Positions 1,775 to 59,006 are shown, numbered from the stretch's first letter. The stretch is 64,000 nt of DNA from an uncultured Methanosarcinales archaeon (GCA_964535955.1 CAZHVK010000001.1:115542-179541); one strand, 5' to 3'. Program-made: numbers and translations. The notes: generated from the letters alone by a model not told the origin.

Positions 1775-3010
1775 TTGATTAAAATGTTGATATATTTATA
1801 TTCAAGAAACCTGGGATTACGAGGAGGAGGAGTGATAAGTAGTCTTACAACTAAGAAATATGTTAATCTATTTGGACATGAATGTTTGTCTTTTACAAAC
1901 ATTAATGAGCTGAGGTCTGCAATTATCAGGAAAAGACCAGATCTAATTCTTCATCATAATATTGTTAATATGTATTCTGTTCTAAGAATTTCTAAGAAAT
2001 ATAAGATTCCATTGATTATTACTGTGAATGGATTGATAACGTGCGGCAGAGGGTTTCATTATATGCCTGATAAGTCTGGGTTTGGAAAAGTCTGTAAAAG
2101 ATGTTCTGTTTATCAAATGCTAAAGTGCAGTATAATTGGTGAGAAAGGAATTAAAGATGATCTTTTTTTAAAAATTAAAAAAATATTAAGTGTTGTGTAT
2201 AGGTGGTTGAAGATAAAGCTTAGAATTTATTGTTTGAATAAAGTAGATGCTATTATTGCAATTGATGAAACATTGAAAAAAGTATTGATCAGAGGAGGGA
2301 TCAGGAATAAAATCTATGTATGCCCTCAACCTATTGATGATGATTTTTTAAAAGTGTCTAAGAAGGTTGTAAAAGCAGATGGTGAAGAACTTCAGAGGAA
2401 TGAAAAGGCAATTAATCATTTTTTTAAGACAAAAAAAAAGAAAATAATATTGGGTGCTGGATTGTTTGTTGAAAAAGGTGCTCTTGTTTTTCTTAAAGCT
2501 TTTAATGAATTGCAAAAAGAAGGAGAAAAAGAAAAAAAACAAAAACAAAGTAAAGTGCAGGATGTTGAGGTCTTTGTGATCGGTAAAAAACATGAATATG
2601 TTGATTTGTCTGTGTTTAAACCTTATATGAAGAAAAATGTTTTTGTTACTGGTAAAGTTTCTCTTGATGAAATGAAATTATTCTATAAAAATGCTGATTT
2701 TATGGGATACATCTGTCTATTGCCTGGTGCATTTGGAAGAGTGTGGGTTGAAGCAATAATGCATAAGTGTGCTATATTGTGTGTTAAGAACCGTGGTGGT
2801 CCTAATGATTTTCTTGTTCCTAATAAAGAAGCTCTTTTTGTGAATGAAAATATTGAGGCATTGAAAAAAGGCATTGTCAAGCTGTTAGATGATGATAAAT
2901 TTAGAAAAAAGATTGCAATAAATGGATATAAGTATGCAAAAAATAATCTTGTTGCTTCTGTTGTTGTGAAAAGATTGGATGAGATTTATAAGGATGTTGT
3001 TAAGGATTAA
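1775..3010 (+). CDS. Glycosyltransferase family 4 carrying a Cys-rich and a K/E-rich insertion
   Basis: The C-terminal half (GKKHEYVDL...FVTGKVS...LLPGAFGRVWVEAIMHKCAILC...GYKYAKNNL) is a typical GT4 fold. A low-complexity EKEKKQKQSK insertion is present. Confidence 0.55.
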   Translation: MIKMLIYLYSRNLGLRGGGVISSLTTKKYVNLFGHECLSFTNINELRSAIIRKRPDLILHHNIVNMYSVLRISKKYKIPLIITVNGLITCGRGFHYMPDKSGFGKVCKRCSVYQMLKCSIIGEKGIKDDLFLKIKKILSVVYRWLKIKLRIYCLNKVDAIIAIDETLKKVLIRGGIRNKIYVCPQPIDDDFLKVSKKVVKADGEELQRNEKAINHFFKTKKKKIILGAGLFVEKGALVFLKAFNELQKEGEKEKKQKQSKVQDVEVFVIGKKHEYVDLSVFKPYMKKNVFVTGKVSLDEMKLFYKNADFMGYICLLPGAFGRVWVEAIMHKCAILCVKNRGGPNDFLVPNKEALFVNENIEALKKGIVKLLDDDKFRKKIAINGYKYAKNNLVASVVVKRLDEIYKDVVKD

Positions 3011-4190
3011 TTATCTTGTTGTGCTGTTCATAGAATTCAATAATTGCATTTGTTATATAGTCTAATTCTTCTTCTGTAATATAAGCATCTATTGGTAAGC
3101 TTAGGATCTTGGTTGATATTTGTTCTGCAATTGGAAAATCACCTTGCTGATAGCCTAAGTATTCAAAAGCTTTTTGAAGATGAAGTGGTTTTGGATAATG
3201 GATTGATGTTGGAATCTGTTTTTGTTTAAGATATGACACCAAATTATCTCTATCTTTGACTTGAATTGAATACTGGGCCCAGACTGACTTATTGTTTTCT
3301 TTTATGTATGGAAGTATGATAATATCTTTACCTGATTCTTTATCTGATAATTGTTTTAGTTTTGTATTGTAATAATCTGCTGCTTTGTTTCTTTTGTCTA
3401 TTTCTTGATTTGTGAATGTTTCTAATTTTGCTAATAAGATTGAAGCTTGGATTGTATCAAGTCTTGCATTTGTTCCAATCATTGTGTGATTGTACTTTGT
3501 TATCTGTCCATGGTTGATGATCCTTCTAATATTTTCTGCGAATTCATAATTATTAGTAAAGATCATACCTGCATCTCCATAACAACCTAAAGGTTTTGCT
3601 GGAAAAAATGATGTGGTTGAGATATCACCTGATGAACATGACTTCTTTCCACCGAAATCTGCTCCAAATGATTGGGCAGCGTCTTGGATAACAAACAGAT
3701 CATATTCTTTGGCTATCTCTTTTATCTTATCATAGTCTGCGCATTGTCCAAATAAGTCGACTGCAATGATTGCTTTTATCTTGTTTTTTTGAATTAATTG
3801 TTTTGTCAATTGGTCTGTAGGGTTTTGTAGAAATTGTTTTACCTTATTTGGGTCAATATTATAAGTTTGTGGATCAATGTCTACAAAAATTGGTGTTGCA
3901 CCTAATAATGTGATAACTTCTGCTGTTGCTATAAATGTAAAAGGTGTTGTGATTACATAATCTCCTTTTTTTATGTTTAAAGCAATAAGTGCTATTAATA
4001 ATGCATCTGTGCCTGATGAAACACCGATTGCATTTTTTGTGTTTGTGAAATATTGGCATTTTTGTTCTAGAATCTTTATCTCTGGACCATTGATGAACTT
4101 AGCATGTTGAAGTACTTTGTTGATATTATCATCTATGTGTTGCTTAAGAAATTTGTACTGTCTTTTGAGATTGCAAAATTCGATTTTCAT
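3000..4190 (-). CDS. DegT/DnrJ/EryC1/StrS-family PLP-dependent sugar aminotransferase (WbpE-like)
   Basis: The family pattern runs throughout: GATPIFVDID, DAAQSFGA, and the SFFPAKPLGCYGDAGM lysine motif. Confidence 0.85.
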   Translation of the reverse strand: MKIEFCNLKRQYKFLKQHIDDNINKVLQHAKFINGPEIKILEQKCQYFTNTKNAIGVSSGTDALLIALIALNIKKGDYVITTPFTFIATAEVITLLGATPIFVDIDPQTYNIDPNKVKQFLQNPTDQLTKQLIQKNKIKAIIAVDLFGQCADYDKIKEIAKEYDLFVIQDAAQSFGADFGGKKSCSSGDISTTSFFPAKPLGCYGDAGMIFTNNYEFAENIRRIINHGQITKYNHTMIGTNARLDTIQASILLAKLETFTNQEIDKRNKAADYYNTKLKQLSDKESGKDIIILPYIKENNKSVWAQYSIQVKDRDNLVSYLKQKQIPTSIHYPKPLHLQKAFEYLGYQQGDFPIAEQISTKILSLPIDAYITEEELDYITNAIIEFYEQHNKIINP

Positions 4191-4233
4191 TTTTGCTCTA
4201 CCGATTAATTGGCGGCAGTTTCATTTTTACTTT

Positions 4234-4836
4234 CTAAACTTTTTCTTCAATTGGTGTAAAACTAATTCCTACGAATTTGTATGTGCTGTGACAACTTGTG
4301 CATTCTAGTATCTGTTCTTGTTCTGAAAATGTTTCTTTTGTCAAAACAATGCCACATTTGCAGACCCAGCCTTTATGTTTTGCAGGTGTACCTAAAAATA
4401 ATGCATAATCTGGAACATCTTTTGTGACAACTGCACCTGCTCCTATCAATGAATATCTGCCTAAAGTGTTGCCGCATATAATGGTTGCATTTGCTCCTAT
4501 TGTTGCTCCTTTTTTTACTAGTGTTTTTTTGAACTCATGTTTACGTTCAATAAATGATCTTGGAATAATAACATTTGTAAATACCATTGAAGGACCACAA
4601 AAAACATCGTCCTCTAGTTCCACACATTTGTAAACAGAAACATTGTTTTGTATCTTGCACCTGTTGCCTATTTTTATATCTGGTCCGATTGATACGTTTT
4701 GACCAATGACACAATTATTACCTATTGTTGAACCTGAGAGTATATGAGAAAAGTGCCATATCTTTGTGCCTTTACCTATGTTTACATTATCATCAATGCA
4801 TGATGATTTATGGACAAAGTAATCTTGATTTTCCAT
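4234..4836 (-). CDS. Sugar N-acetyltransferase with left-handed beta-helix hexapeptide repeats and a C-terminal CxxC..CxxC zinc ribbon
   Basis: Repeated [LIV]G-x-x-x-x-I hexapeptides (IGNNCVIGQNVSIGPDIKIGNRCKI). The C-terminal KCGIV...CTSCHSTY motif forms the zinc ribbon. Confidence 0.75.
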   Translation of the reverse strand: MENQDYFVHKSSCIDDNVNIGKGTKIWHFSHILSGSTIGNNCVIGQNVSIGPDIKIGNRCKIQNNVSVYKCVELEDDVFCGPSMVFTNVIIPRSFIERKHEFKKTLVKKGATIGANATIICGNTLGRYSLIGAGAVVTKDVPDYALFLGTPAKHKGWVCKCGIVLTKETFSEQEQILECTSCHSTYKFVGISFTPIEEKV

Positions 4837-6722: not shown

Positions 6723-8159
6723 ATGAGAAAGAATAAAATGAATGAAATAATTGACCAAAATCCAAAAATAGGAGAAAGAGAACAGGAAAATAAAATAAGT
6801 GTTAAAAAAGATTTATTTGACAGGATAAAGCAAATGAAAGGGGCTATCCATTTAGTTTTAATAGCTACAAAGCCTGACATAATTAAACAAGCTCCATTGA
6901 TTCTGGAATTGAGAAAAAGGAATGAAAATATTGTAATAGTCCATACTGGGCAGCATTATGATTGGAACTTATCCAAAGGAATGGAACAAGAATTTGATAT
7001 TCACCCTGATGTAAATCTAAATGTTCATGGAAAGACATTATATGAACAACAGTCAAAAATCATAGGCAGGTTTGGAAAAATAGTGGATGAAATTAAGAAG
7101 ATTAATAAAAAAATTGTTCCTTATACATATAGTGATACAACTAGTGCTGTTGCTGGTGGTGTTGCTAGTTTTGCAAATAGGATTGCAGTTGCTCATGTTG
7201 AAGCAGGACTTAGGACAATGAGTCCACCAAGAGAAATCCTTACAAGTTTATTATATAATAGGAATATTGTTGATTATTATGAAGAATTAAAAAATCCTGA
7301 AGGATGGAAAAAAGGAAGTTATGAACCTTATCCTGAACAGTTTGACAGCCGAGCTTCTGCACCATCAGCTGGAGTGCATCTTGCTCCTACTGAGCTTAAT
7401 AAAAATAATTTGATAAATGAGGGATATGATAAAAAAAGAATATTTGTTGTTGGAAATCCTGTTTCAGATGCAATTGGATTTGCAAAAGAAAGAATAGATC
7501 AAAGTCAGATATTCAAGGAATATCCTATATTAAAGCAAGGTAATTTTATAAGATTCTGTGTTCATAGAAGAGAAAATGTTTCATCTAAGCATAGGTTTAA
7601 GTCAATAATACTAGCAATGATTGAATTGATTAAAGAAGGTAAAAATATTCTTTTTATCTCATTAGGTGCAACTGAAAAAGCATTAAAAGCATTTGAATTA
7701 AAAGAAGAGATTGTGGAATTGAACAAAGAATATGAGAATTTTATTTATTCACCTGTATGGCCCAGTTATATTGATGTGATTGCTGCTATGCAAAAATGTA
7801 GTGTAATTGCAACTGATTCTGGGAGTATACAAGAGGAAGCTAACATACTTGGAATTCCAGGAGTCATTTTAAGGTTTAATTCTGATAGACCTGAGACTGT
7901 TTTTGCAGGATCAAATATAATTGCACCTCCTATGAAAAAAGAGATTGTCTACAGAATAATAAAAGAAATTCATGAAAATAGGGAACTTAACAATAAAATG
8001 GCAAATAGTCCTAAACTTTATGGTCAGGATGTTGGTAAAAAAATAGTTGATGTTGTTAATGGTATAATGAGTGAAGGGCCATTGTTTGAACTACTTGAAC
8101 ATGAAAGATTAGGTTTTTCTAAATTTGATATGTGGGAGAAAGGTGGGATTGATTGGTGA
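6723..8159 (+). CDS. UDP-N-acetylglucosamine 2-epimerase (non-hydrolysing, WecB/MnaA family) with insertions
   Basis: Hallmark HVEAGLRT motif plus ATDSGSIQEEANILGIPGVILRFNSDRPE. The protein is about 100 aa longer than usual because of inserts. Confidence 0.8.
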   Translation: MRKNKMNEIIDQNPKIGEREQENKISVKKDLFDRIKQMKGAIHLVLIATKPDIIKQAPLILELRKRNENIVIVHTGQHYDWNLSKGMEQEFDIHPDVNLNVHGKTLYEQQSKIIGRFGKIVDEIKKINKKIVPYTYSDTTSAVAGGVASFANRIAVAHVEAGLRTMSPPREILTSLLYNRNIVDYYEELKNPEGWKKGSYEPYPEQFDSRASAPSAGVHLAPTELNKNNLINEGYDKKRIFVVGNPVSDAIGFAKERIDQSQIFKEYPILKQGNFIRFCVHRRENVSSKHRFKSIILAMIELIKEGKNILFISLGATEKALKAFELKEEIVELNKEYENFIYSPVWPSYIDVIAAMQKCSVIATDSGSIQEEANILGIPGVILRFNSDRPETVFAGSNIIAPPMKKEIVYRIIKEIHENRELNNKMANSPKLYGQDVGKKIVDVVNGIMSEGPLFELLEHERLGFSKFDMWEKGGIDW

Positions 8160-9882
8160 ACACTACAAAATTGTGTTCTTTGTTTTGATATATTGTAAAG
8201 AAACCTATACTGTTAAAGTCTGATTTTGTAATTGTATTAAGATATATAAACTTCTTTGTTTTATTATTGAATATGTTTTGGTTTATGATTATATAATTTA
8301 CATTATATTTTTTTATGATGTTATTGATTGTTTGTAAGTCGTTATCAGGCAGCATTACTGCTTTTCTAGAAGTATAAAAATTAACTTGAGCAGGAAGAGA
8401 TGTCATGATAATATCATCTTGATTTGTATTTTGTAATACCCAATCTGCTTCAGGAGAATAATTTTGGTATGATGGAAGAGTTGATAATCTATAATTCATA
8501 AATGTTATGAAATAAAGACTAAATACAATAATTATAATGATTGTGATTATTAGAATGATATATGAAGATTTGTTAATCAATGTTTTGATTGTGTTTACTA
8601 TTTTTGATTTTGATTTTTTGCAATATCTCAATAAGGTATAAATTATTAGAGGAGTAAGTAAAATCAGGATTGGAGTAAAATATCTTGGTTCATAATGAGA
8701 TCTTATTGTGAAAAAAATTGATAATAAGTAGAATGTGAGGATTGAAAAGTCAAGATATATTCTTATTCCTAATTTAAAGGTTTTTCTTAATCTTAACAAG
8801 ATTAATGATGATATGAATAAAAATAATGTTATAAGATTTGTAAAAAAAAGATAAATTTGGCGTAATGTGAATATAATTATATTATTCCATGAACAAGAAA
8901 GATTTGTATGAGGTAAATATCTGATTATATGTTCTTGTAAAGGAGTTCTAAATCCTGAACATTTATAGATTAAATCAGGAAGTCCTGAATAAGGGGATGA
9001 AACAAAAGTATTGAATAAAAGAGAGTTTCTTAGAAAAAAAGGAAGCAAGATAAGAAAACATGTTAGTAATGTTAATGTTAAAGATATTATGAATCTGTGT
9101 CTGTTTGTTGTTTTGTTTGTTCTTTTGTTTGTTGTTTTGTTTGTTGTTTTGTTTGTTGTTTTGTTTGTTGTTTTGTTTGTTGTTTTTATTCTAAACTTTG
9201 ATAAAGTAAATAAATACATAATAGAAAGACATAGCATTGCAAAGATTGCAAAGATACCTGCATATTTTTGTAAAAAAGTAAATGCCAATATAATTCCTAA
9301 TATGAATGGTATTGTTGTTTTGGATGATGTTGTGCCAATAGTTGTGACAAGTTTTACAAAAAAATAAACACTTAATAATAATAAAATGTAAAACAAAGGT
9401 TCTGTCATTGCGTATAGAAAGTAATAACTAAATAAAAAATAAGGATTAAAGATTATAATTAAGCTTGAGAAAAATGCAATTGTTTCACCAAAAATGTCTT
9501 TTGTAATGAAATAAAAGAGGATTGCAAATATGAGAAATAAAATAATATTAATAATTTTTGTAGAAAAAACACTTATTCCAAAGATTAAATAGCTTAATGA
9601 GATTAATATTGGGAAAAAGATAACTCTTACATCTTCTGGGTGAGTTATGGTGTCATAATCTTCATAGTAATATAAAATAAAGTCATTAGTAATGCCTTTT
9701 CCTGATAATATGTTTTTTGCTGTTGCTGAAAAAATTCCTGGATCGCTTCCAATGCCATTATTGTTTGAAATTATGTTTAAATAAATTGAGAATAAGATTA
9801 GGATAATCAGCAAATATGATAAAAATAATTTGGTATTCTTTTTGTGCTTTTTTCTTTTTTTGTTGTTTTTCAGAGATTTCAT
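8119..9882 (-). CDS. Polytopic membrane protein, putative GT-C-fold (ArnT/PMT-like) glycosyltransferase; carries a (KTTNK)n low-complexity loop
   Basis: More than 10 predicted TM helices in the N-terminal two thirds and a soluble C-terminal domain. A KTTNKTTNKTTNKTTNKTTNKRTNKTTN loop is present. Position within the agl cluster is suggestive, but the family assignment is tentative. Confidence 0.4.
   Translation of the reverse strand: MKSLKNNKKRKKHKKNTKLFLSYLLIILILFSIYLNIISNNNGIGSDPGIFSATAKNILSGKGITNDFILYYYEDYDTITHPEDVRVIFFPILISLSYLIFGISVFSTKIINIILFLIFAILFYFITKDIFGETIAFFSSLIIIFNPYFLFSYYFLYAMTEPLFYILLLLSVYFFVKLVTTIGTTSSKTTIPFILGIILAFTFLQKYAGIFAIFAMLCLSIMYLFTLSKFRIKTTNKTTNKTTNKTTNKTTNKRTNKTTNRHRFIISLTLTLLTCFLILLPFFLRNSLLFNTFVSSPYSGLPDLIYKCSGFRTPLQEHIIRYLPHTNLSCSWNNIIIFTLRQIYLFFTNLITLFLFISSLILLRLRKTFKLGIRIYLDFSILTFYLLSIFFTIRSHYEPRYFTPILILLTPLIIYTLLRYCKKSKSKIVNTIKTLINKSSYIILIITIIIIIVFSLYFITFMNYRLSTLPSYQNYSPEADWVLQNTNQDDIIMTSLPAQVNFYTSRKAVMLPDNDLQTINNIIKKYNVNYIIINQNIFNNKTKKFIYLNTITKSDFNSIGFFTIYQNKEHNFVVFTNQSHLSPTYQI
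9107..9190. repeat. 15-nt tandem repeat (about 5.5 copies of tttgtttgttgtttt) inside a CDS, encoding (KTTNK)n on the minus strand
   Basis: The repeat is directly visible in the sequence. Confidence 0.9.
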
Positions 9883-31206: not shown

Positions 31207-31343
31207 AAGGAGGAAGACAAAAATGATGCCAGGAATGAATATAAACAAACTTTTACAAAGTTTGATCAAAGGTAGTGAGGCATTACGCTTTGCTTCAGCC
31301 ACACAAGGAGGAAGACAAAAATGATGCCAGGAATGAATATAAA
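31207..31343. repeat. Direct duplication of a 39-nt translation-initiation segment (AAGGAGGAAGACAAAAATGATGCCAGGAATGAATATAAA) at 31207-31245 and 31305-31343
   Basis: The two 39-nt copies are exactly identical and lie 98 nt apart. Confidence 0.9.
31223..31324 (+). CDS. Putative 33-codon upstream ORF (MMPGMNINKLLQSLIKGSEALRFASATQGGRQK). It shares its first 7 codons with NAC, and its TGA stop overlaps the NAC ATG (ATGA)
   Basis: Created by the duplicated SD-plus-start segment. It has the same strong SD (AAGGAGG) as the downstream gene. Confidence 0.3.
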   Translation: MMPGMNINKLLQSLIKGSEALRFASATQGGRQK

Positions 31344-31665
31344 TCCACGTATGATGAAGCAAGCTATGAAAAAGATGGGTATGAAGCAAGAAGAAGTTGA
31401 TGCTAAAGAAGTTATCATAAAATTAGAAGATAAAGAATTAGTATTTCATAATCCAAGTGTGAGTAAAGTGAATGTTATGGGGCAGGAATCGTACCAAGTT
31501 TCAGGTGATTTTGAGGAACGTGGTTTAGATACAAAAGCTGAAATTAATGAAGATGATATAAAGGTTGTTATAGAACAATGTGGTTGTAGTGAAGAAGATG
31601 CTGAGAATGCAATTAAAGAAGCTGAAGGTGATCTTGCTAAAGCAATTATGAGCCTAAAAGGATGA
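31321..31665 (+). CDS. nac: Nascent polypeptide-associated complex protein (archaeal NAC alpha)
   Basis: Typical archaeal NAC N-terminus MMPGMNINPRMMKQAMKKMGM, the NAC domain, and a C-terminal UBA-like tail (EEDAENAIKEAEGDLAKAIMSL). Confidence 0.85.
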   Translation: MMPGMNINPRMMKQAMKKMGMKQEEVDAKEVIIKLEDKELVFHNPSVSKVNVMGQESYQVSGDFEERGLDTKAEINEDDIKVVIEQCGCSEEDAENAIKEAEGDLAKAIMSLKG

Positions 31666-43836: not shown

Positions 43837-44000
43837 CATGTGTATGGTTCGTTCAAACTTTCCATGTGTCATATCATTGCTTGGAAGGCCTTGTAGTTTT
43901 ACAATTTGTGTGGGTTTTCACTTGTCAGAAATGGGACATTTCTGATCATGCTCATGAATCTACGATTCATGACAGGCCTTAACAGGCACCATACACATGT
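43837..44000. repeat. Intergenic inverted-repeat-closed structured element, copy B
   Basis: A 13-bp perfect terminal inverted repeat, ACATGTGTATGGT ... ACCATACACATGT. Internal motifs are TCGTTCAAACTTTCCATGTG and GGCCTTAACAGGC. Three internal perfect hairpins are present. Both sides carry the flank TTTTATTAC. Confidence 0.6.
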
Positions 44001-52020: not shown

Positions 52021-53853
52021 TTAACCCTTTTTAAATAATAGTTTATCTTTTTGTTTGTCTTCCTTTATCTTGCTTCTTTTTAAAAGCTTCTTTTGCTGTA
52101 GAAGTATTAATTTAGTTAAAAACTTTTTGGAAATTAATTTTTGTAAAACTATTATTAAGACCAATAAGATAATTACATAAATAGAAATATAATATAATTG
52201 GCTCAATACTGGTTGAATTCCATACTTTAATCCTATCTTTAAAAAATTAGCACTCAATATCAAAGGAGAATATCTTATTATATTTCTTATTGCTTCAGGC
52301 ATCATACCAATAGGAATTATTATATCTGATAAAAATAAGAATATCGTGCTGATTGAAACTGCAGCAATTGCAGATGTTTCTTCTGTTTTAAACATTTGTC
52401 CAATAATAATCCCTATAAAAGAAAATAAAGAGATTATCAAAATAATATAAGGTAGCATCTTTAAAGTAGGAATAATTATTTGAATATTAAATAATATAGA
52501 TGAAATAATTACAATAACAAAGATCTGTAATAATACAATAAGAAGGCATGTTAAGTAATAACCCAATAAAAATATAATATCATCAACAGGAGTAATCTTG
52601 TTTCTGAAAAAAGCAGGGCTTTTCTTTTCCATCATGACTAAACTAGTGGAAAGAAGAATGCTAATAAACATAATAATTATCACTAAAAGATTTGGAAATA
52701 ATCCTTCTAAATAAGTGATCTCACTTTCAACCCCTCTGATGTCTGTTTTTATAGGACTTACGATCTTGTCTGCATCTGTTATCTGGATGCTTCCTATATT
52801 TTCATCTATTTTTTTAAAAGATTTATCTATTTCATTGATGTTTTCATTTACAGAATTTATTTTTTCTTTAATTTTATCTAGTTTGTCAGTAATTTTGCTT
52901 CTTGATGAAGCAACATCATTTATCTTATTTTTTGTTTTTTCAATGTTTAGATTGATATCTTTTATAAGTAACTTTAGTTCTGTGATTTTTTTGTCTGTAT
53001 TTGTTTGTTGATCTTCTATTAATGTATTTGCTTCATTGACTTTTGATTGAGTAGTATTTATTAGATCTTTTATGTCTGAAATTGATGCTGAATTTTCTTC
53101 TGATTCTAATGATTCTACATCTGATTCTATATCTTCTAGATGAGATGATATATCTACAAAATATGCTCCTGCTTTTTCTATTTCATTATTTTGTTTTTCT
53201 ATCTCATCTAATTTTGTGCTTGTTTCAGTTGTCTTAAAATCATTTGTGTTTATACTAATGTCCAAAGAATTAAGATCAATTTTTATTTGTTCTAGCTTAT
53301 CTGTGGAATCTTTGTTTAATTTTTTTATTTCAGATAACAAAGGTTTTTTATTGAATATTTCAACCCTTGTACTTTCAAGTTTTTGAAGAAGTGTATTTGT
53401 AAGATCCATTGAGATTTCTTTTGATTTCTCAGAAAATTTACTTGATAATGCTTCAATTATAATAAAGACCATATTAATTCTTGAATTATCAACATAAAAT
53501 GTTAAAGTATTGTTGCCAATACCTTTTTCTAAGTCAAGGTTTGGTGGAAAAATAACACAAGCATTTAGTTTGTTTATTTTTATCTTATTTATACAATCAA
53601 GTTCAGAAGATGTTTTTTCAACATTGTACTGTTTTTCACTTAATTTATCAGTAAAGATATTAACAGTATCTGTGTACTCTTCTGAATAAACACCAATGTT
53701 CAATGCCATTGAATTTGTATTGTTGAATGCAATGCCTAATAATAATATTAAGAATAATGGGCCAAGTATTATAATAAGTGATGAAAATTTAGATCTTAAA
53801 AGTAGTTTGAAGTTTTTTTGAATAATTTTGATGAGTGGAGTGATTTGTTTCAT
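52021..53853 (-). CDS. ABC-2-type transporter permease with a large extracytoplasmic coiled-coil domain (YhgE/Pip-like)
   Basis: N-terminal TM, a coiled-coil domain of about 300 aa, then 5 C-terminal TM helices. It is paired with the upstream ATPase. Confidence 0.7.
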   Translation of the reverse strand: MKQITPLIKIIQKNFKLLLRSKFSSLIIILGPLFLILLLGIAFNNTNSMALNIGVYSEEYTDTVNIFTDKLSEKQYNVEKTSSELDCINKIKINKLNACVIFPPNLDLEKGIGNNTLTFYVDNSRINMVFIIIEALSSKFSEKSKEISMDLTNTLLQKLESTRVEIFNKKPLLSEIKKLNKDSTDKLEQIKIDLNSLDISINTNDFKTTETSTKLDEIEKQNNEIEKAGAYFVDISSHLEDIESDVESLESEENSASISDIKDLINTTQSKVNEANTLIEDQQTNTDKKITELKLLIKDINLNIEKTKNKINDVASSRSKITDKLDKIKEKINSVNENINEIDKSFKKIDENIGSIQITDADKIVSPIKTDIRGVESEITYLEGLFPNLLVIIIMFISILLSTSLVMMEKKSPAFFRNKITPVDDIIFLLGYYLTCLLIVLLQIFVIVIISSILFNIQIIIPTLKMLPYIILIISLFSFIGIIIGQMFKTEETSAIAAVSISTIFLFLSDIIIPIGMMPEAIRNIIRYSPLILSANFLKIGLKYGIQPVLSQLYYISIYVIILLVLIIVLQKLISKKFLTKLILLQQKKLLKRSKIKEDKQKDKLLFKKG

Positions 53854-53858
53854 TTTGA

Positions 53859-53898
53859 TTTGTCAAAAACATCTGTTTTTGATCATGATCAAAATTCC
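53859..53898. promoter_or_regulatory. Conserved palindromic upstream element TTTGTCAAAAAC-N9-TTTTTGATCATGATCAAAA, copy 1, about 33 nt upstream of the permease start
   Basis: Perfect 12-bp palindrome TGATCATGATCA. An element matching at 32 of 34 positions lies upstream of dnaG. Confidence 0.5.
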
Positions 53899-53912
53899 AT
53901 TAGAAGTATTGG

Positions 53913-54842
53913 TTACTTCTTATGACATTTTGACATTTCTAAAGCTTTGAAAAGTGTTGTTAAATTTGCATGTTTGGATGGTAATGATTTTTTTATGTCT
54001 TTAACAGAAGCGCATTTTATGATCCTTCCATTCTTAATAATAGCAACCCTATCACAAATCTCTTCCATGTCGTCCAAGAAATGAGAAGCTATGATGACTG
54101 TAATCCCTTTTTTTTTAATCTTTAATATTAAACTAAGAATTTCCTCTCTTAAGATTGGGTCAAGATCTGCAGTTGGTTCATCAAGTATAATAAGTTCTGG
54201 TTTATGTATCAAAGCGCAAATTATACCTAAACGTTTCTGCATTCCAAATGAAAGTTCTTGTGCTAAAGTATGTTTACTTTGTTCTAATCTTGTTAATTTA
54301 AGTAATGCATTTGCATTTGCTAGTATAACAGAATGAGAAATATTATACAAAGAACCAAAATGTTCTAGATTTTCTAATGCTGTTAGTTTAGGATAAAAAC
54401 TTGGTTCTTGAGGGGCAAAACCTATTTTTTGCCGCATTAATGCTAAATCCTTGTTTGATTCAATCAGTTTATTTCCGTGATTATAATATATTTTCCCAAA
54501 ATCTGCATAATGAAAACCTATGATAAGATTTAGCAAAGTTGTTTTACCTGAACCAGACATACCGATTAATCCAAAGATTTCTTTTTTTTTAATGCTTAAG
54601 TTGATGTTCTTAAGAATTTCTTTGTTATGAAACTGTTTGTTTAGGTTTTGTATTTTGATTATTATGTTTTTGTCTGCTTTTGATGTTTGTTTTTTTAGTG
54701 TTGTTTTCTTTGTTTTGTTTTGTTTACGATTTCTTTTTGTTTCTTTTTTTGTTTTTTTAGTTTTTAATCTTTTGTGTTTTGTTTTAGACTTCTTTTTAGA
54801 ATTACTACTACTAAGATTCCTCTTTTTTCTTTTCTGTTTCAA
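53913..54842 (-). CDS. ABC transporter ATP-binding protein with a K/R-rich N-terminal extension
   Basis: Walker A is GMSGSGKTTLL, the signature is LSFGMQKRL, and Walker B is LIILDEPT. Confidence 0.85.
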   Translation of the reverse strand: MKQKRKKRNLSSSNSKKKSKTKHKRLKTKKTKKETKRNRKQNKTKKTTLKKQTSKADKNIIIKIQNLNKQFHNKEILKNINLSIKKKEIFGLIGMSGSGKTTLLNLIIGFHYADFGKIYYNHGNKLIESNKDLALMRQKIGFAPQEPSFYPKLTALENLEHFGSLYNISHSVILANANALLKLTRLEQSKHTLAQELSFGMQKRLGIICALIHKPELIILDEPTADLDPILREEILSLILKIKKKGITVIIASHFLDDMEEICDRVAIIKNGRIIKCASVKDIKKSLPSKHANLTTLFKALEMSKCHKK

Positions 54843-54994
54843 TCTAATATATATTTTAGTGTCTATATATATAAAGGTTTCTTAAGATAATTGTCCCCTA
54901 CTTATAATAAAAAAACATACAAAAGCTTTATTTAGTGTGAAATTTATCATATATGATATATATTAAACTATTATTATGCTAGGAGGTGTATTTG

Positions 54995-56098
54995 ATGGAA
55001 GATTATATTGAGATAATGCCAAAAACAGAGACTGTTTCTGACAAAACAGAAGTTTCTGTTGAACCTAAACAGGTATTGGATAAACCAAAAAGAAAAAGAA
55101 AGATAAAAGTTAGTAGGATTCTTATGGTTATTGTGGTTGTATTGATTTTATTTGCAGGAGTTTATTATGATCAAACTGTTTCTTATGCTAATAAATTAAT
55201 GAAAACAACTGGATTAGCAGGAATAACTATGGTAGAAGGTGATGAAAATACTGCTGCTATTGTTGGTGATGCAATAATATCAATGGATGAACTTAATGAG
55301 GAATATAATAAGATTCCAGAAATGGTGCAGGCGTTTACACCAAAATCAAGGATATTAGAGAGTATGGTTAGTCAAAAAATGTTGTTAAAAGAAGTTGAAG
55401 AAAAAGGAATTAATGTTGATGATGAAAAAATCAATGAAAGAATTAATGAAATCAAGCAAACAAATAATTTAAATGATGAAGAATTTGAAGCAGCATTATT
55501 AGAAATAAACCTAGCTCTGGAAGAATATATAGCAAAAACAAAAGATATAATTGCTATTGAAAATTATCTGGATGATTTTGTTTTCAAAGAGATTATAACA
55601 GGAGATGAAGAAATAAAAATATATTATAATGAAAATATAAATCTTTTTGAAAAAAATGAAGAAGTAACAGCTGCGCATGTATTAATCTCATCAAGCGATA
55701 GAAGTGAAGAAGAAGCTTTAGCAATTATACAAGCATTAAAACAAAGAGCTGAGAAAGATAATTTTACATTTATTGTTAAAGAATATTCAGAAGATCCTAG
55801 CAAAGAAATGAATAATGGTGTTTTAGTATTTGAAAAAGGTCAAATGGTTGCAGAGTTTGAACAAGCTGCTTTTAATTTAAATGTTGGGGAAGTTAGTGAA
55901 CCTGTAAAAACAGTTTATGGTTATCATTTAATCAAATTATTAGGTAAGGAAGATGCTAGAACACTGGAATTAGAAGAAGTTAAGGATGAGATTAAAGATT
56001 TGATAGAAAATGAAGAAAAGGAAGAAGCATTAATAACATATTTAGAAGCTTTAAAAGAAAAATATGATGTTGAAATCTTTTATTCTGATGAAATTTAA
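54995..56098 (+). CDS. Membrane-anchored parvulin-type peptidyl-prolyl isomerase (PrsA/SurA-like)
   Basis: N-terminal TM followed by the PpiC domain (AAHVLISS...GYHLIKL). The ATG at 54995 has an AGGAGGTG SD 6 nt upstream; the track used a GTG at 54986. Confidence 0.75.
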   Translation: MEDYIEIMPKTETVSDKTEVSVEPKQVLDKPKRKRKIKVSRILMVIVVVLILFAGVYYDQTVSYANKLMKTTGLAGITMVEGDENTAAIVGDAIISMDELNEEYNKIPEMVQAFTPKSRILESMVSQKMLLKEVEEKGINVDDEKINERINEIKQTNNLNDEEFEAALLEINLALEEYIAKTKDIIAIENYLDDFVFKEIITGDEEIKIYYNENINLFEKNEEVTAAHVLISSSDRSEEEALAIIQALKQRAEKDNFTFIVKEYSEDPSKEMNNGVLVFEKGQMVAEFEQAAFNLNVGEVSEPVKTVYGYHLIKLLGKEDARTLELEEVKDEIKDLIENEEKEEALITYLEALKEKYDVEIFYSDEI

Positions 56099-56149
56099 TT
56101 TTTTATTTATTCTTTTTTTTATTTGATTTTTATTTATTATACCATCAGA

Positions 56150-56515
56150 TTAATTAGTCTTTGCTCTGAATGCATCGATCAAATAAATTAGAATAATTGG
56201 AACTAGGCCAAAAGCCAGATGGCTGATAACATCGTGAGGAATGTGTTCTATAAATGAGATATAAGGAATCTCAAATATTGTATTAAATGCTGGTGAAAGT
56301 AGTATAATTCCACAACAAATTACAATTACAGACTCTATTGTTTCTCTCCATTCAACCATTTTTATGCCTTTTTTGTAAAAGATTTGAACATCATGAACAA
56401 ACCATGAAGTACTGAATAACCTCCAAATATAACACATATTATTGAAAATTCTGATTCGTAAAAAAATGAAAATATATTTGTGAAGAATGTATAATGTTTT
56501 GATAACATAATGCAC
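56150..56515 (-). CDS. Hypothetical small membrane protein
   Basis: Two or three hydrophobic segments. Weak call. Confidence 0.3.
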   Translation of the reverse strand: MHYVIKTLYILHKYIFIFLRIRIFNNMCYIWRLFSTSWFVHDVQIFYKKGIKMVEWRETIESVIVICCGIILLSPAFNTIFEIPYISFIEHIPHDVISHLAFGLVPIILIYLIDAFRAKTN

Positions 56516-56688
56516 ATTGTAAAAACTAGGATAATAAATTGTATAAACTCAAGCCATGTGAATTTACTGTCTGAAGGTGTGGTTGAACCAAACATTGTTT
56601 AATTTATGTGGCAAGTATATTTAAAATTAACTTAAATTATTGCTAAAAAGTAAGAAAAAATAAGAAAAAAAAGTAAAAAAAATAAGAT

Positions 56689-57966
56689 CTACAATTCATT
56701 TAATGTAACAATATTCAGTCTAGTATCTCTCTTATTGATTCTTGAGTCCATTGCTACTACAAACTTAATGTTTTTATTCTGCTCTAATCCTTTTATTAAA
56801 GCTCTATCAATGCTACCATCAAATACAACTGCAAAAACATTTGTACCTAAGTTACTTATTGTAGATGAGATTTCTGATATAGGAACCTTACCTAAAATAT
56901 TTAACTTATCATCAAGTATGTAACTACCCCTTGTACCTATTAAATCTTCTAGCATTTGTTTAAATGATTTTTTTTGTTTATCATCTAAACTAATTTTAGC
57001 TGCTGGAGGTCCTGCTTGAGATCTTTGTTGATAACTAGATCTTTGATAACTTGATTTTTGGTAAGGTTTTCTTGAATCTTGTCTTCTGTATGACTGTCTT
57101 TTACCACCATTCATTGACTCTGTTGTTGCATCTAGATTGAATTCCATTTTTGCTTGTTCTGCTGCTACTTTGCTTCTCAATGCTTTATGAATTTCTTTCT
57201 TAGTTATTTCTTCAACTTCTTTTCCGTCAGGTGCTTTTGTTACAAAATCAATGTCTGCGACATTTAAGATTTCTTTTATGATAAGGTTACCTCCCCTATC
57301 TCCATCTGTAAAAACAGTCATAATCTTTTCTTTACTTAGACCAATAATTGATTCTGGTATTGATGTTCCATTTATTGCTATTACATTCTTAAAACCATGT
57401 TTTAATAAATTAAGAACATCTGCTCTTCCTTCAACAATTATAATATCATCACTTTCATCAACACTAGGACCTGCAGGTAGCCTGTCTTTACCATATTCTT
57501 GTATTTCCATTACTCTTACAGAATATGCTACTTCATCTGCTAGTTCTTGAGAATCTGGCATTACTTTGTCCATTAGGTTTTTTAGTAATATTTTTGCTCT
57601 GTCAATAACAAACTGTCTTTTGCTAACTCTAACATCTTCAATGTTTTGTACTTGAATCTTAGCATTACAAGGTCCAATTCTTTGAATAATTTCTAATGAA
57701 GCAGCTACAATAGATGTTTCTGCTTTATCTAAAGAACTCGGAATTAATATTGTACCTGTTGTTTTACCTGATCTTGTTTCAGCTGTTACTTCTATTCTAC
57801 CGATTCTACCTGATCTTTGAAGTTCTCTAAGTTCTAAATCTGCTCCTAACAAGCCTTCTGTTTGACCAAATACTGCTCCTATTACATCTGGTTTGTCTAC
57901 AACTCCTTCTATTTGGATGTTTGCATGAACAATATATTTTGCTGATACTGGGCTAATTTTAGCCAT
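56689..57966 (-). CDS. dnaG: Archaeal DnaG-type primase (TOPRIM)
   Basis: TOPRIM motif [28 protein letters not shown] and [10 protein letters not shown] chose the ATG at 57966 (MAKISP...); the track used a GTG at 57975. Confidence 0.85.
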
Positions 57967-57983
57967 TTTTATCACTCTCCTAG

Positions 57984-58036
57984 TTTGTCAAAAACTTTGT
58001 TTTTGATCATGATCAGAAATCCTTGATTTCTGACAA
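57984..58036. promoter_or_regulatory. Conserved palindromic upstream element, copy 2: TTTGTCAAAAAC-N8-TTTTTGATCATGATCAGAAA ... TGACAAA, about 44 nt upstream of dnaG
   Basis: The same 12-bp palindrome TGATCATGATCA with 32/34 conserved flanks. The outer arms TTTGTCA/TGACAAA are also symmetric. Confidence 0.5.
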
Positions 58037-58592
58037 ATTTGATAGAAAAAGCTCTCTAACTTGATTCCAAATAATGTGTTTTGTGAATAAGTAAACATGA
58101 TTTTGCCTTTTCTATCTATTTAAGAACAAGTTTTAAACCGTAATTTTAACTAATTTCCAACTCTTTTTTTGCTTTTAAATGATTAAATGAATATGATTTG
58201 CGGTTTTTTTGACTTGTTCTATTGTTTTTAAGCCTATTTTGACTTTCTTTGTTCTTTTTAAACTTAATTTATGATTTAATAAGCATAAAAGGTTTGTTGC
58301 CTGAAGCACTAACTCCCAGGGTTCATTGCTCGCCTTATGCGTTAGCTCCATTGAGCACTCTCGTGTCAGGCTGTATTATGCAAGAGTATCTTTAAATCAC
58401 TGTTGTTCTTTGTTGAACAGCTCATAAAAGGACCCATTTGCATAAATTGTGCGATGATATATGGTAGGTAGAGGTGGTTAATAAATGTTTGGTTTTTTGT
58501 GGTTTTTGTCATCACTTGAAGGTAATGACTTATAGAAAGATTTATATAGTGGTGTGTGTTGCTTTTTACTATATAATTATATAGTGAGGTAA

Positions 58593-59006
58593 TTGAAGAT
58601 GAAAGACACATATAGAGTTAATGAAGATGGTGAAACATTAAGTGCTAGGCTTGTTAAAGGTGATGAGGGTAAAACTATTGAGATAATGTATACAAAAAGA
58701 AATGGTGATTATCAAGTTGGTTTGTATAAAGGTGGAGTTGAACAAAGTACAAGAGCAGTATTTGCAGATGAAAGTCAACCTATGCAGAATTCTGATGGTA
58801 ACAGTTTTTTACAAATGTATATAGCTGCTTATGATAAGTTAGGTCCTAAGTTAAGGGAACAATTACCAGCTGAATGGTGCAGTATTCTTGGTTCATGGCT
58901 TAAGAAGAGTGGTTATAGAAAAGCAATTGATTCTATGAAAAAAGAAGTTGGTGAAGATGGTGCACAAATATTAGAAAATTTGCCAAAGATTATTTTTGGG
59001 TTGTAG
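58593..59006 (+). CDS. Hypothetical protein, first gene of a compact 4-gene plus-strand operon
   Basis: A GAGGT SD lies upstream. Local GC is higher than in the neighbouring genes. Confidence 0.4.
   Translation: MKMKDTYRVNEDGETLSARLVKGDEGKTIEIMYTKRNGDYQVGLYKGGVEQSTRAVFADESQPMQNSDGNSFLQMYIAAYDKLGPKLREQLPAEWCSILGSWLKKSGYRKAIDSMKKEVGEDGAQILENLPKIIFGL

Follow-up and report, generated by a model that had tools for sequence, protein, structure and literature searches.

A palindromic motif that recurs upstream of dnaG and of an ABC-2 permease gene in a 64,000-nt stretch of DNA, attributed to an uncultured Methanosarcinales archaeon (GCA_964535955.1 CAZHVK010000001.1:115542-179541; the whole stretch is called the window below), is probably a non-autonomous miniature palindromic mobile repeat of about 50 bases and not an operator. 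The family to which the motif belongs is new, and the kind of element is already known. The element is non-autonomous, multi-copy and insertionally polymorphic: all three copies in the window occupy sites that carry no copy in a close relative, and the copies are insertions that differ among close relatives, not conserved regulatory sites. The first-pass annotation of the window had suggested either an operator shared by the two genes or a repeated small element. The second suggestion holds; the first fails on empty orthologous sites, variable arm spacing and mixed contexts, and dnaG and the ABC-2 transporter are not co-regulated via this motif. Judged by homologues of its DnaG and Orc1 proteins, the host is a Woesearchaeota-type DPANN archaeon.

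Filled and empty sites in close relatives

The closest relative found (loci L244 and L252) has DnaG and Orc1 proteins that are both 87% identical to those of the window. Its gene order, dnaG, peptidyl-prolyl isomerase (PPIase), ABC ATPase, permease, transglutaminase, PIN-ATPase, serS, orc1 and rpS2, is that of the window and is unchanged except for the insertions. In front of dnaG, tctatcaaa and ctaggag are separated by 54 nt of additional sequence in the window, whereas L244 and L245 read tctatcaaacagtttaaggagg and are empty. Followed to the start codon, the sequence is tctatcaaaCAGTTTAAGGAGG..ATG in L244/L252 versus tctatcaaa, the insert TTTGTCAG...TTGACAAA and then CTAGGAGAG..ATG in the window. 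A further 50 nt upstream of this site are almost identical between the window and the 87% relative, and the promoter-proximal sequence flanking it is conserved in the relatives with an empty site. The dnaG site is also empty in L281 (DnaG 82% identical), no copy was found at the dnaG loci of more distant relatives (L246, L248 and L250; DnaG 84% and 69% identical), and the site is filled in same-species contigs from other samples (L120-L122 and L280).

The other two copies behave in the same way. In L244, the ABC ATPase and permease genes overlap (ATGAATAG) without an insert, and in the window the junction holds a 75-nt insert and the ATPase carries a new C-terminal tail. The outer hairpin arm of this copy lies within the final ATPase codons, which are element-derived from within the ...EMSKCHKK* tail on. 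The orc1-rpS2 spacer measures 324 nt in the window versus 168/169 nt in L252/L253, that is, 155 nt more, with a 19-nt remnant in L252 and nothing in L253. Conversely, L253, a TARA relative, has two copies flanking serS (7936-7986 and 9441-9491, one good and one decayed, recognised by a covariance model) at sites that are empty in the window and in L252. The filled/empty comparisons number four in all. Conservation in related genomes, the lack of which the first-pass annotation had named as speaking against a shared motif, is indeed missing at orthologous positions, while the motif family itself is widespread in related lineages.

From the sequence context, we infer that the copy in front of dnaG is probably transcribed within the dnaG leader as a hairpin in the 5' untranslated region, and the ABC copy as an intercistronic hairpin. 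A Shine-Dalgarno sequence (GGAGAGTGAT) stands between the element and the dnaG ATG, and the dnaG transcript is therefore not leaderless, contrary to an option that had been left for it. Nor do the two copies mark two unrelated promoters, as had been proposed: the permease copy is placed between the stop codon of the ATPase gene and the start codon of the permease gene, and not upstream of an independent promoter. The ABC insertion appears to have extended the ATPase C-terminus and to have uncoupled the overlapping ATPase and permease reading frames. Any effects on dnaG and the ABC genes would be side effects of insertion and not a designed regulatory circuit.

Anatomy, covariation and distribution of the double hairpin

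Exact matches to TGATCATGATCA occur twice in the window, at the centres of copy 1 (ABC genes) and copy 2 (dnaG); with at most one mismatch there are 4 matches versus 0.40 expected, a number reached by no shuffle. Both copies lie on the minus strand, the orientation of dnaG and the ABC genes, and the palindrome centres are 32.5 and 43.5 nt from the ATGs at 53853 (ABC-2 permease, next to the ABC ATPase) and 57966 (archaeal DnaG with a Toprim domain). The copies are near-identical around a perfect centre, as had been noted; the ungapped identity of 32/34 is better stated as about 31/34 aligned columns with a 1-nt indel. This indel and a substitution fall in the hairpin loop TCAAAAAC-AGAT/AAA-GTTTTTGA, which is why an ungapped 33-mer pattern matches only one of the two copies. 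The element is also larger than the 34 nt first assigned to it, the full units of copies 1 and 2 measuring 50-75 nt. A full unit consists of (A)TG, a first hairpin H1 (TCAGAAAT..loop..ATTTCTGA), the linker TCATGA, a second hairpin H2 (TCAARAAC..loop..GTTYTTGA) and a terminal CA, so that a second hairpin stands on the far side of the palindrome in copies 1 and 2 alike.

The ATG of dnaG follows copy 2 at a distance of 17 nt, and the insertion separates the Shine-Dalgarno sequence from a conserved TTTTTCTATCAAA box (also given as TTTTTCTATC). In copy 1, the H1 loop contains a nested hairpin (AGAAGTA-ACCAA-TACTTCT) and the ATPase stop codon. Copy 3, which occupies the orc1/cdc6-rpS2 spacer, has diverged: the centre is TGATCATGCTCA, and compensatory substitutions set the H2 stem apart from those of the other copies. 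A covariance model built on 16 family members found exactly these three copies in the window, the next best hit scoring 15 bits, and gave near-equal scores on both strands. No lone hairpins of the H1 or H2 type were found elsewhere in the window beyond chance. The coordinates are collected in Table 1. Copy 3 is carried by a 163-nt structured insertion whose edges show inverted repeats (ATGTGTATGGT / ACCATACACAT) and a 9-nt direct repeat (GTAATAAAA); this insertion resembles a separate miniature inverted-repeat transposable element (MITE) with the double-hairpin copy inside.

Table 1. Double-hairpin copies in the window and their parts (positions counted from the first nucleotide of the window).
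Feature	Position	Strand	Details
Copy 1 (ABC copy), TGTCA to TGACA	53861..53935	-	75 nt; covariance model 45.2 bits
Copy 1, H1	53889-53933	-	TCAAAAT..31-nt loop..ATTTTGA
Copy 1, centre	53880-53891		TGATCATGATCA
Copy 1, H2	53863-53882	-	TCAAAAAC-AGAT-GTTTTTGA
Copy 2 (dnaG copy), inserted segment	57984..58037	-	54 nt, TTTGTCAGAAATCAAGGATTTCTGATCATGATCAAAAACAAAGTTTTTGACAAA; covariance model 70.7 bits
Copy 2, core TGTCA..TGACA	57986-58035	-	minimal form, 50 nt, 3-nt loops
Copy 2, H1	58013..58033	-	TCAGAAATC-AAG-GATTTCTGA; 9 bp stem, 3-nt loop
Copy 2, central perfect 12-bp palindrome	58004..58015		TGATCATGATCA; overlaps feet of H1 and H2; linker TCATGA
Copy 2, H2	57988..58006	-	TCAAAAAC-AAA-GTTTTTGA; 8 bp stem, 3-nt loop
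Copy 3, diverged	43923..43974	+	TGTCAGAAATG-GGA-CATTTCTGA-TCATGC-TCATGAATC-TAC-GATTCATGA-CA; covariance model 71 bits
Outer structured insertion carrying copy 3, orc1/cdc6-rpS2 spacer	43838..44000	.	163 nt; fold z -5.7 and -5.9

The hairpins are under selection. In an alignment of 16 minimal copies, 96.8% of the stem cells are Watson-Crick paired; seven pairs (21 cells) are changed on both sides and none on one side only. The observed covariation was reached by 0 of 500 shuffles, and the pairing is lost when the 3' partners are shifted. Mismatches are infrequent among 38 copies, with G-T no commoner than A-C, and the stems show Watson-Crick changes only and no strand bias. The lack of a G-T excess, together with the near-equal scores on the two strands, indicates that the hairpins are maintained as DNA palindromes. 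A single long REPIN-like hairpin with pairing outer arms was rejected, as copy 3 covaries inside each small hairpin and not between the outer arms. Searches of Rfam 15 gave no match at the gathering score in the window and, at E values up to 10, only chance-level matches in 53800-58700. Restriction-site avoidance or a Dam-type signal was discarded because the counts of GATC, TGATCA and CATG are as expected; C/D-box, H/ACA, bulge-helix-bulge (BHB) intron and attenuator readings were dropped by eye, since neither the box sequences nor the bulge geometry fits and a strand signature is lacking.

Outside the window, the architecture is present in about 37 distinct loci on Woesearchaeota/Nanoarchaeota contigs, in hosts spanning 27-50% GC, the 50% being that of one carrier contig. 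When one genome per species was scanned for the 17-mer TGATCATGATCAAAAAC, at least 119 loci were obtained, at least 10 of them, with a contig labelled Methanosarcinales among these, from Woesearchaeota/Nanoarchaeota-type metagenome-assembled genomes; among the matches listed, 10 of 10 DPANN loci have the full two-hairpin architecture and 0 of the 109 other loci do. A structured-pattern scan of metagenomes returned 120 loci, about 35 of which are true members (both stems at least 7 bp) and the rest chance matches. Among IMG/VR viral contigs, 0 of 27 loci holding the pattern or a 16-mer show the architecture, and a viral or plasmid origin was rejected on this ground. One type of copy, that of L126, is common to seven loci with at least five different flank contexts and is thus multi-copy, and UBA12459-type loci hold at least five copies; the density in the window is 3 copies per 64 kb. 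Copies also bracket single genes: a GalT-like gene lies between two copies in L201 and L109, and serS in L253. The L201 copies (1875-1925 and about 2960-3066) are in inverted orientation around the GalT-like gene.

Most copies keep the same hairpin order, the GAAAT type followed by the ARAAC type, and the element therefore has polarity. Loop lengths, or arm spacings, range from 3 to 67 nt among members. The centre may be replaced by TGAGCATGCTCA, which is still palindromic, or be split by about 90 nt of other hairpins, and L165 holds a 418-nt non-coding element bounded by the same 17-nt terminal arms; these variants indicate that the parts are modular. The minimal unit comprises about 48-56 nt, with H1 and H2 joined by the palindromic TCATGA and bounded by TG...CA. 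A literature search for the element sequence returned only irrelevant results. A contig labelled 'uncultured Methanosarcinales archaeon' (L117, CAYWFN010000035.1; 28% GC) carries a canonical copy and is possibly a mis-binned DPANN contig.

Insertion signature and competing explanations

The 38 copies examined give no sign of a target-site duplication: whatever the boundary offset, and for lengths of 2-5 nt, direct repeats were no commoner than in flank-shuffled controls. On the H1 side the flanking consensus is TTTGANA, 21 of 28 copies having A at -1 (p = 3e-5), and the 3' flank on the H2 side is unconstrained; this asymmetry has p = 0.054, and the L253 copies and window copy 2 do not match TTTGANA. 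The ends are terminal inverted repeats (TGTCARRAAY ... RTTYYTGACA) with about 8/10 complementary positions, and the inner arms are conserved as strongly as the outer arms. As for a mobilising enzyme, no transposase, integrase or resolvase domain was found in the window open reading frames (ORFs) scanned. Outside the window, no transposase or recombinase family recurs near about 35 elements (137 ORFs within 4 kb), the only recurring neighbour families being DEAD-box helicases (4) and S-adenosylmethionine (SAM) methyltransferases (4). No IS200-TnpA motif was found in a crude scan of all fetched DNA. An autonomous parent was sought as the same arms 150-4000 nt apart and rejected, as only the non-coding 418-nt L165 version and chance pairs were recovered. 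In L126, a repeat of about 190 nt that carries the double hairpin is interrupted in its left part by a 1567-bp insertion sequence (IS; 3261-4827), which encodes a DDE_Tnp_1 transposase and has perfect 16-nt inverted repeats (CCCAACTTTGACAGTT). The ends of this IS are unrelated to the element, and it was rejected as a parent.

We tentatively propose, giving it somewhat less than an even chance, that the element transposes in folded, single-stranded form along an IS200/IS605-like (HUH, Y1) route and that the long loops are secondary insertions. In this model, an IS200/IS605-like enzyme supplied in trans would carry out a 'peel-and-paste' transposition, with insertion 3' of a TTTGANA-like target, and the long loops of some copies would result from secondary insertions into the palindromes. 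We favour a single-strand route over duplex cut-and-paste because insertion leaves no target duplication, the constraint is confined to one flank and each end has a palindrome, and also because a unit of about 50 nt is too short for a duplex circle and other small elements seem to have inserted into the palindromes. Our caution about IS200/IS605 stems from the 2-nt feet, the inverted-repeat ends and the fact that no TnpA was found.

Several observations weigh against a mobile repeat of this kind. Just 2 nt separate the hairpin feet from the ends, which look like short inverted repeats (TGTCAR.../...YTGACA), unlike the characterised ends of IS200/IS605, and IS200/IS605 TnpA or TnpB was absent from all fetched loci by a crude motif scan and Pfam. 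There are only four filled/empty comparisons, with junctions in A-runs, and for two of the window copies a 3-4-nt duplication (AAA/CAAA) is possible. Outside the loops, the core is at least 90% conserved, versus 44-57% identity for adjacent DEAD-box helicases; such conservation beyond that of neighbouring proteins could reflect a host-level constraint, and it would also be explained if an active element whose sequence requirements are strict had spread horizontally. Four of the approximately 37 copies adjoin a DEAD-box helicase gene (L070, L111, L192 and L213). These helicase-adjacent copies belong to divergent hosts, differ in distance and orientation, and are commoner than chance would suggest. 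At L070 (5237-5495) and L111 (24-146), intron-containing tRNA-Gly-like genes (GCGCCGG...CCGGCGCA) adjoin the element, with the anticodon loops CTTCCAT and TTGCCAA as read by eye; ARAGORN calls neither, and the L070 gene appears to enclose the element.

One might also speculate that the element represents either hairpin-DNA transposition in DPANN archaea by an undescribed enzyme or a host-domesticated cruciform or hairpin site for a conserved Woesearchaeal protein, and we regard this pair of options as unlikely. Either option could underlie the persistence of perfect, covarying hairpins and a near-invariant core in backgrounds of 27-50% GC and in hosts with neighbouring proteins of only about 45-57% identity. 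The former is suggested by the absence of a visible TnpA, RAYT (REP-associated tyrosine transposase) or DDE partner and by hairpin feet 2 nt from the ends. For the latter, a link to replication is suggested by the clustering of copies within 14 kb of orc1/cdc6 in two related genomes.

The genomic context bears on whether the motif serves its neighbours. These are unrelated housekeeping genes: dnaG, the ABC transporter, orc1/rpS2, TGT, TFB, GalT and rubrerythrin, and further ThrRS, Sua5, PGI, methyltransferases, glycosyltransferases and DEAD-box helicases. Element polarity is unrelated to gene direction; copies occur in both orientations, some of them at the 3' ends of genes, and start codons are anywhere from 5 to more than 200 nt away. 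The H1 side faces 17 gene starts and 6 stops and the H2 side 14 and 10, giving 31 versus 16 in total. The occupied spacers (13 tandem, 8 divergent, 1 convergent) match the shares of these classes among spacer bases (54%, 31% and 15%); the excess of gene starts is explained by the longer spacers at starts and vanishes once spacer length is taken into account, and a promoter association was rejected. An operator, in which a dimeric factor would bind TGATCATGATCA and the outer TGTCA/TGACA half-sites and co-regulate dnaG, the ABC-2 permease and others, would suit the perfect 12-bp palindrome close to two start codons, the surplus of facing gene starts and the strong conservation of the core across genomes. 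We nevertheless give it next to no credence: the dnaG sites are empty in the 87% and 82% relatives, with none found around dnaG at 84% and 69%, the ABC junction of the 87% relative is empty, arm spacing runs from 3 to 67 nt, some copies adjoin the 3' end of a gene or occupy a convergent spacer, spacer length accounts for the surplus of starts, and the neighbouring genes share no common function. Much the same can be said of a functional RNA, that is, a 5' untranslated or intercistronic double hairpin acting as a REP-type (repetitive extragenic palindromic) stabiliser, processing site or riboregulator. Copies 1 and 2 are placed for transcription with the downstream gene, and the stable hairpins have a structure preserved by covariation, but there is no orientation preference relative to flanking genes, no G-U intermediate, no strand asymmetry of mismatches and no Rfam match, both strands score nearly equally in the covariance model, and orthologous sites lack the element, so that this explanation is hardly credible either.

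Two other readings also treat the element as mobile or recombining DNA. As a classical DDE-type MITE, it would be an IS deletion derivative with TG...CA ends, moved by cut-and-paste by a DDE transposase acting in trans. The ends TGTCAR.../...YTGACA match as inverted repeats at 8/10 positions, the L126-type unit is central in an element of about 190 nt with 27-nt inverted repeats (about 20/27 matching) and an adjoining DDE_Tnp_1 IS, the 418-nt L165 element has the same 17-nt terminal arms, and a census found 105 MITEs per Mb in a Woesearchaea genome, which places it with the archaeal genomes of highest MITE density (PMC11602168). However, 38 copies show no target-site duplication at any boundary offset, the inner arms are conserved like the outer ones although a MITE does not need them, the flank constraint is one-sided, and the L126 IS, with its unrelated ends, interrupts the larger element and does not define it; we therefore consider a DDE-type MITE improbable. 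A recombination site resembling dif, hix or attC, with the core ATTTCTGA-TCATGA-TCAARAAC and site pairs that define cassettes or invertible segments, is in our view highly improbable. It would account for two inverted arms around a 6-bp spacer, for the pairs that bracket GalT (L201/L109), serS (L253) and the dnaG-to-ABC-ATPase block (window), and for flanks with partial similarity to the opposite element end; the L052 copy has a tyrosine recombinase fragment at a distance of 950 nt, and H2, read as TGATCAAAAACC..GGTTTTTGA, presumably resembles the Hin hix half-sites (TTATCAAAAACC). Against this, no recombinase recurs near the elements or occurs among the window ORFs scanned, the gene order of the window and L244/L252 differs only by the insertions, the attC core motifs RYYYAAC/GTTRRRY are absent, the H2 loop varies in length, which is incompatible with a fixed crossover site, and a 50-bp double-stranded circle would be physically implausible.

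Other features of the window and relation to known elements

Upstream of dnaG, the ORF-free gap 58038-58592 holds a strongly conserved structured non-coding core of about 170 nt (58285-58455, minus strand). The block GCCYG.CAYGAGAGTRCTCAA..GAGC...GCAATGA.CYTGGGAGTTAGTGYTTCRGGC is nearly invariant in four relatives, all of which retain a gap of 508-582 nt upstream of dnaG. RNAalifold predicts 48 pairs, 12 of them compensatory, with several invariant G-U pairs in the dnaG orientation. The core has no Rfam match at E values up to 10 and is a candidate for an undescribed non-coding RNA or leader. Elsewhere, an exact 39-nt duplication (AAGGAGGAAGACAAAAATGATGCCAGGAATGAATATAAA; 31207-31245 and 31305-31343, 98 nt apart) covers the ribosome-binding site and first codons of a NAC-domain gene (31321-31662). 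A 12-nt tandem repeat, (TTGTTGTTTTGT)n with about 8 copies (9081-9204), lies within a PMT_2 glycosyltransferase-like ORF (8122-9882) and would encode a short repeated peptide on the coding strand.

Recognition of the double hairpin as a mobile repeat removes a false regulatory lead from the annotation and provides a compact, searchable family consensus (TGTCAGAAAT..ATTTCTGATCATGATCAARAAC..GTTYTTGACA). Its members seem to be restricted to DPANN genomes of the Woesearchaeota/Nanoarchaeota type, which are not culturable, and the family might be used as a marker of strain-level variation, as a binning check and as a handle for the mobilising enzyme. It also offers a natural experiment on how very small genomes cope with insertions that fall between promoter and ribosome-binding site or within overlapping operon genes.

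Among known systems, IS200/IS605 elements such as IS608 and ISDra2, mobilised by the HUH Y1 enzyme TnpA, have subterminal hairpins, make no target duplication and insert in one orientation 3' of a short target. The target of ISDra2 is TTGAT, and IS608 is cleaved 19 nt (left) and 10 nt (right) from its hairpins. The double-hairpin family is similar in its end hairpins, the lack of target duplication and a TTTGANA flank that recalls TTGAT, and a single-stranded circular intermediate would suit a 50-nt element; it differs in a hairpin-end distance of 2 nt and in having no linked tnpA or tnpB. With REP sequences, bacterial interspersed mosaic elements (BIMEs) and REPINs, which depend on RAYT enzymes, it shares short extragenic palindromes that are non-autonomous, often paired, sometimes mosaic and located between operon genes. 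Unlike these, its hairpin feet are preceded by (A)TG or TCATGA and not by a GTAG/GGAG 5' tetranucleotide, no RAYT was found and the window ORFs scanned contain no Y1 transposase, the density is low, the host is an archaeon, and the core is conserved across deeply divergent genomes and is not species-specific. Correia and other MITE-type elements are likewise small, intergenic, near gene starts, likely to be co-transcribed and variably present, but have a fixed TA or other target duplication and a DDE transposase, neither of which is seen here. The arms TCAARAAC/GTTYTTGA put purines at the pyrimidines required in integron attC sites, and the neighbours are housekeeping genes with no integrase.

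The closest known relatives in kind are haloarchaeal palindrome-associated transposable elements (PATEs) and small mobile repeats (SMRs). The PATEs of Haloquadratum walsbyi have near-terminal palindromes and no target duplication, and 52-bp terminal-only derivatives of IS605 type are apparently mobilised; their palindromes serve as insertion sites for small mobile repeats (PMC3119063). The double-hairpin family is unrelated to PATEs in sequence; its hairpin feet are 2 nt from the ends, its hairpins abut via TCATGA and its ends form terminal inverted repeats, which PATEs by definition do not have; no IS605-type parent or TnpA was found for the family in the fetched loci and the window. The SMRs of Haloquadratum are 80-110 bp long and have inverted terminal repeats unrelated to known transposons, no target duplication and a strong target preference (PMC3119063). 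Their mobilisation is unknown, and SMR-A targets PATE/IS605 palindromes (PMC3119063). The sequences are again unrelated, and the double-hairpin family lands in ordinary intergenic DNA by a TTTGANA-like flank; inverted-repeat ends and the lack of a target duplication are common to both. With PATEs, the double-hairpin family shares an archaeal host, a length too short for a protein, a palindrome by each end, no target duplication, strain- or lineage-specific insertions, a minimal size of about 52 bp and palindromes that are conserved across genera, and the insertion of small repeats into PATE palindromes resembles the loops of 3-67 nt seen here.

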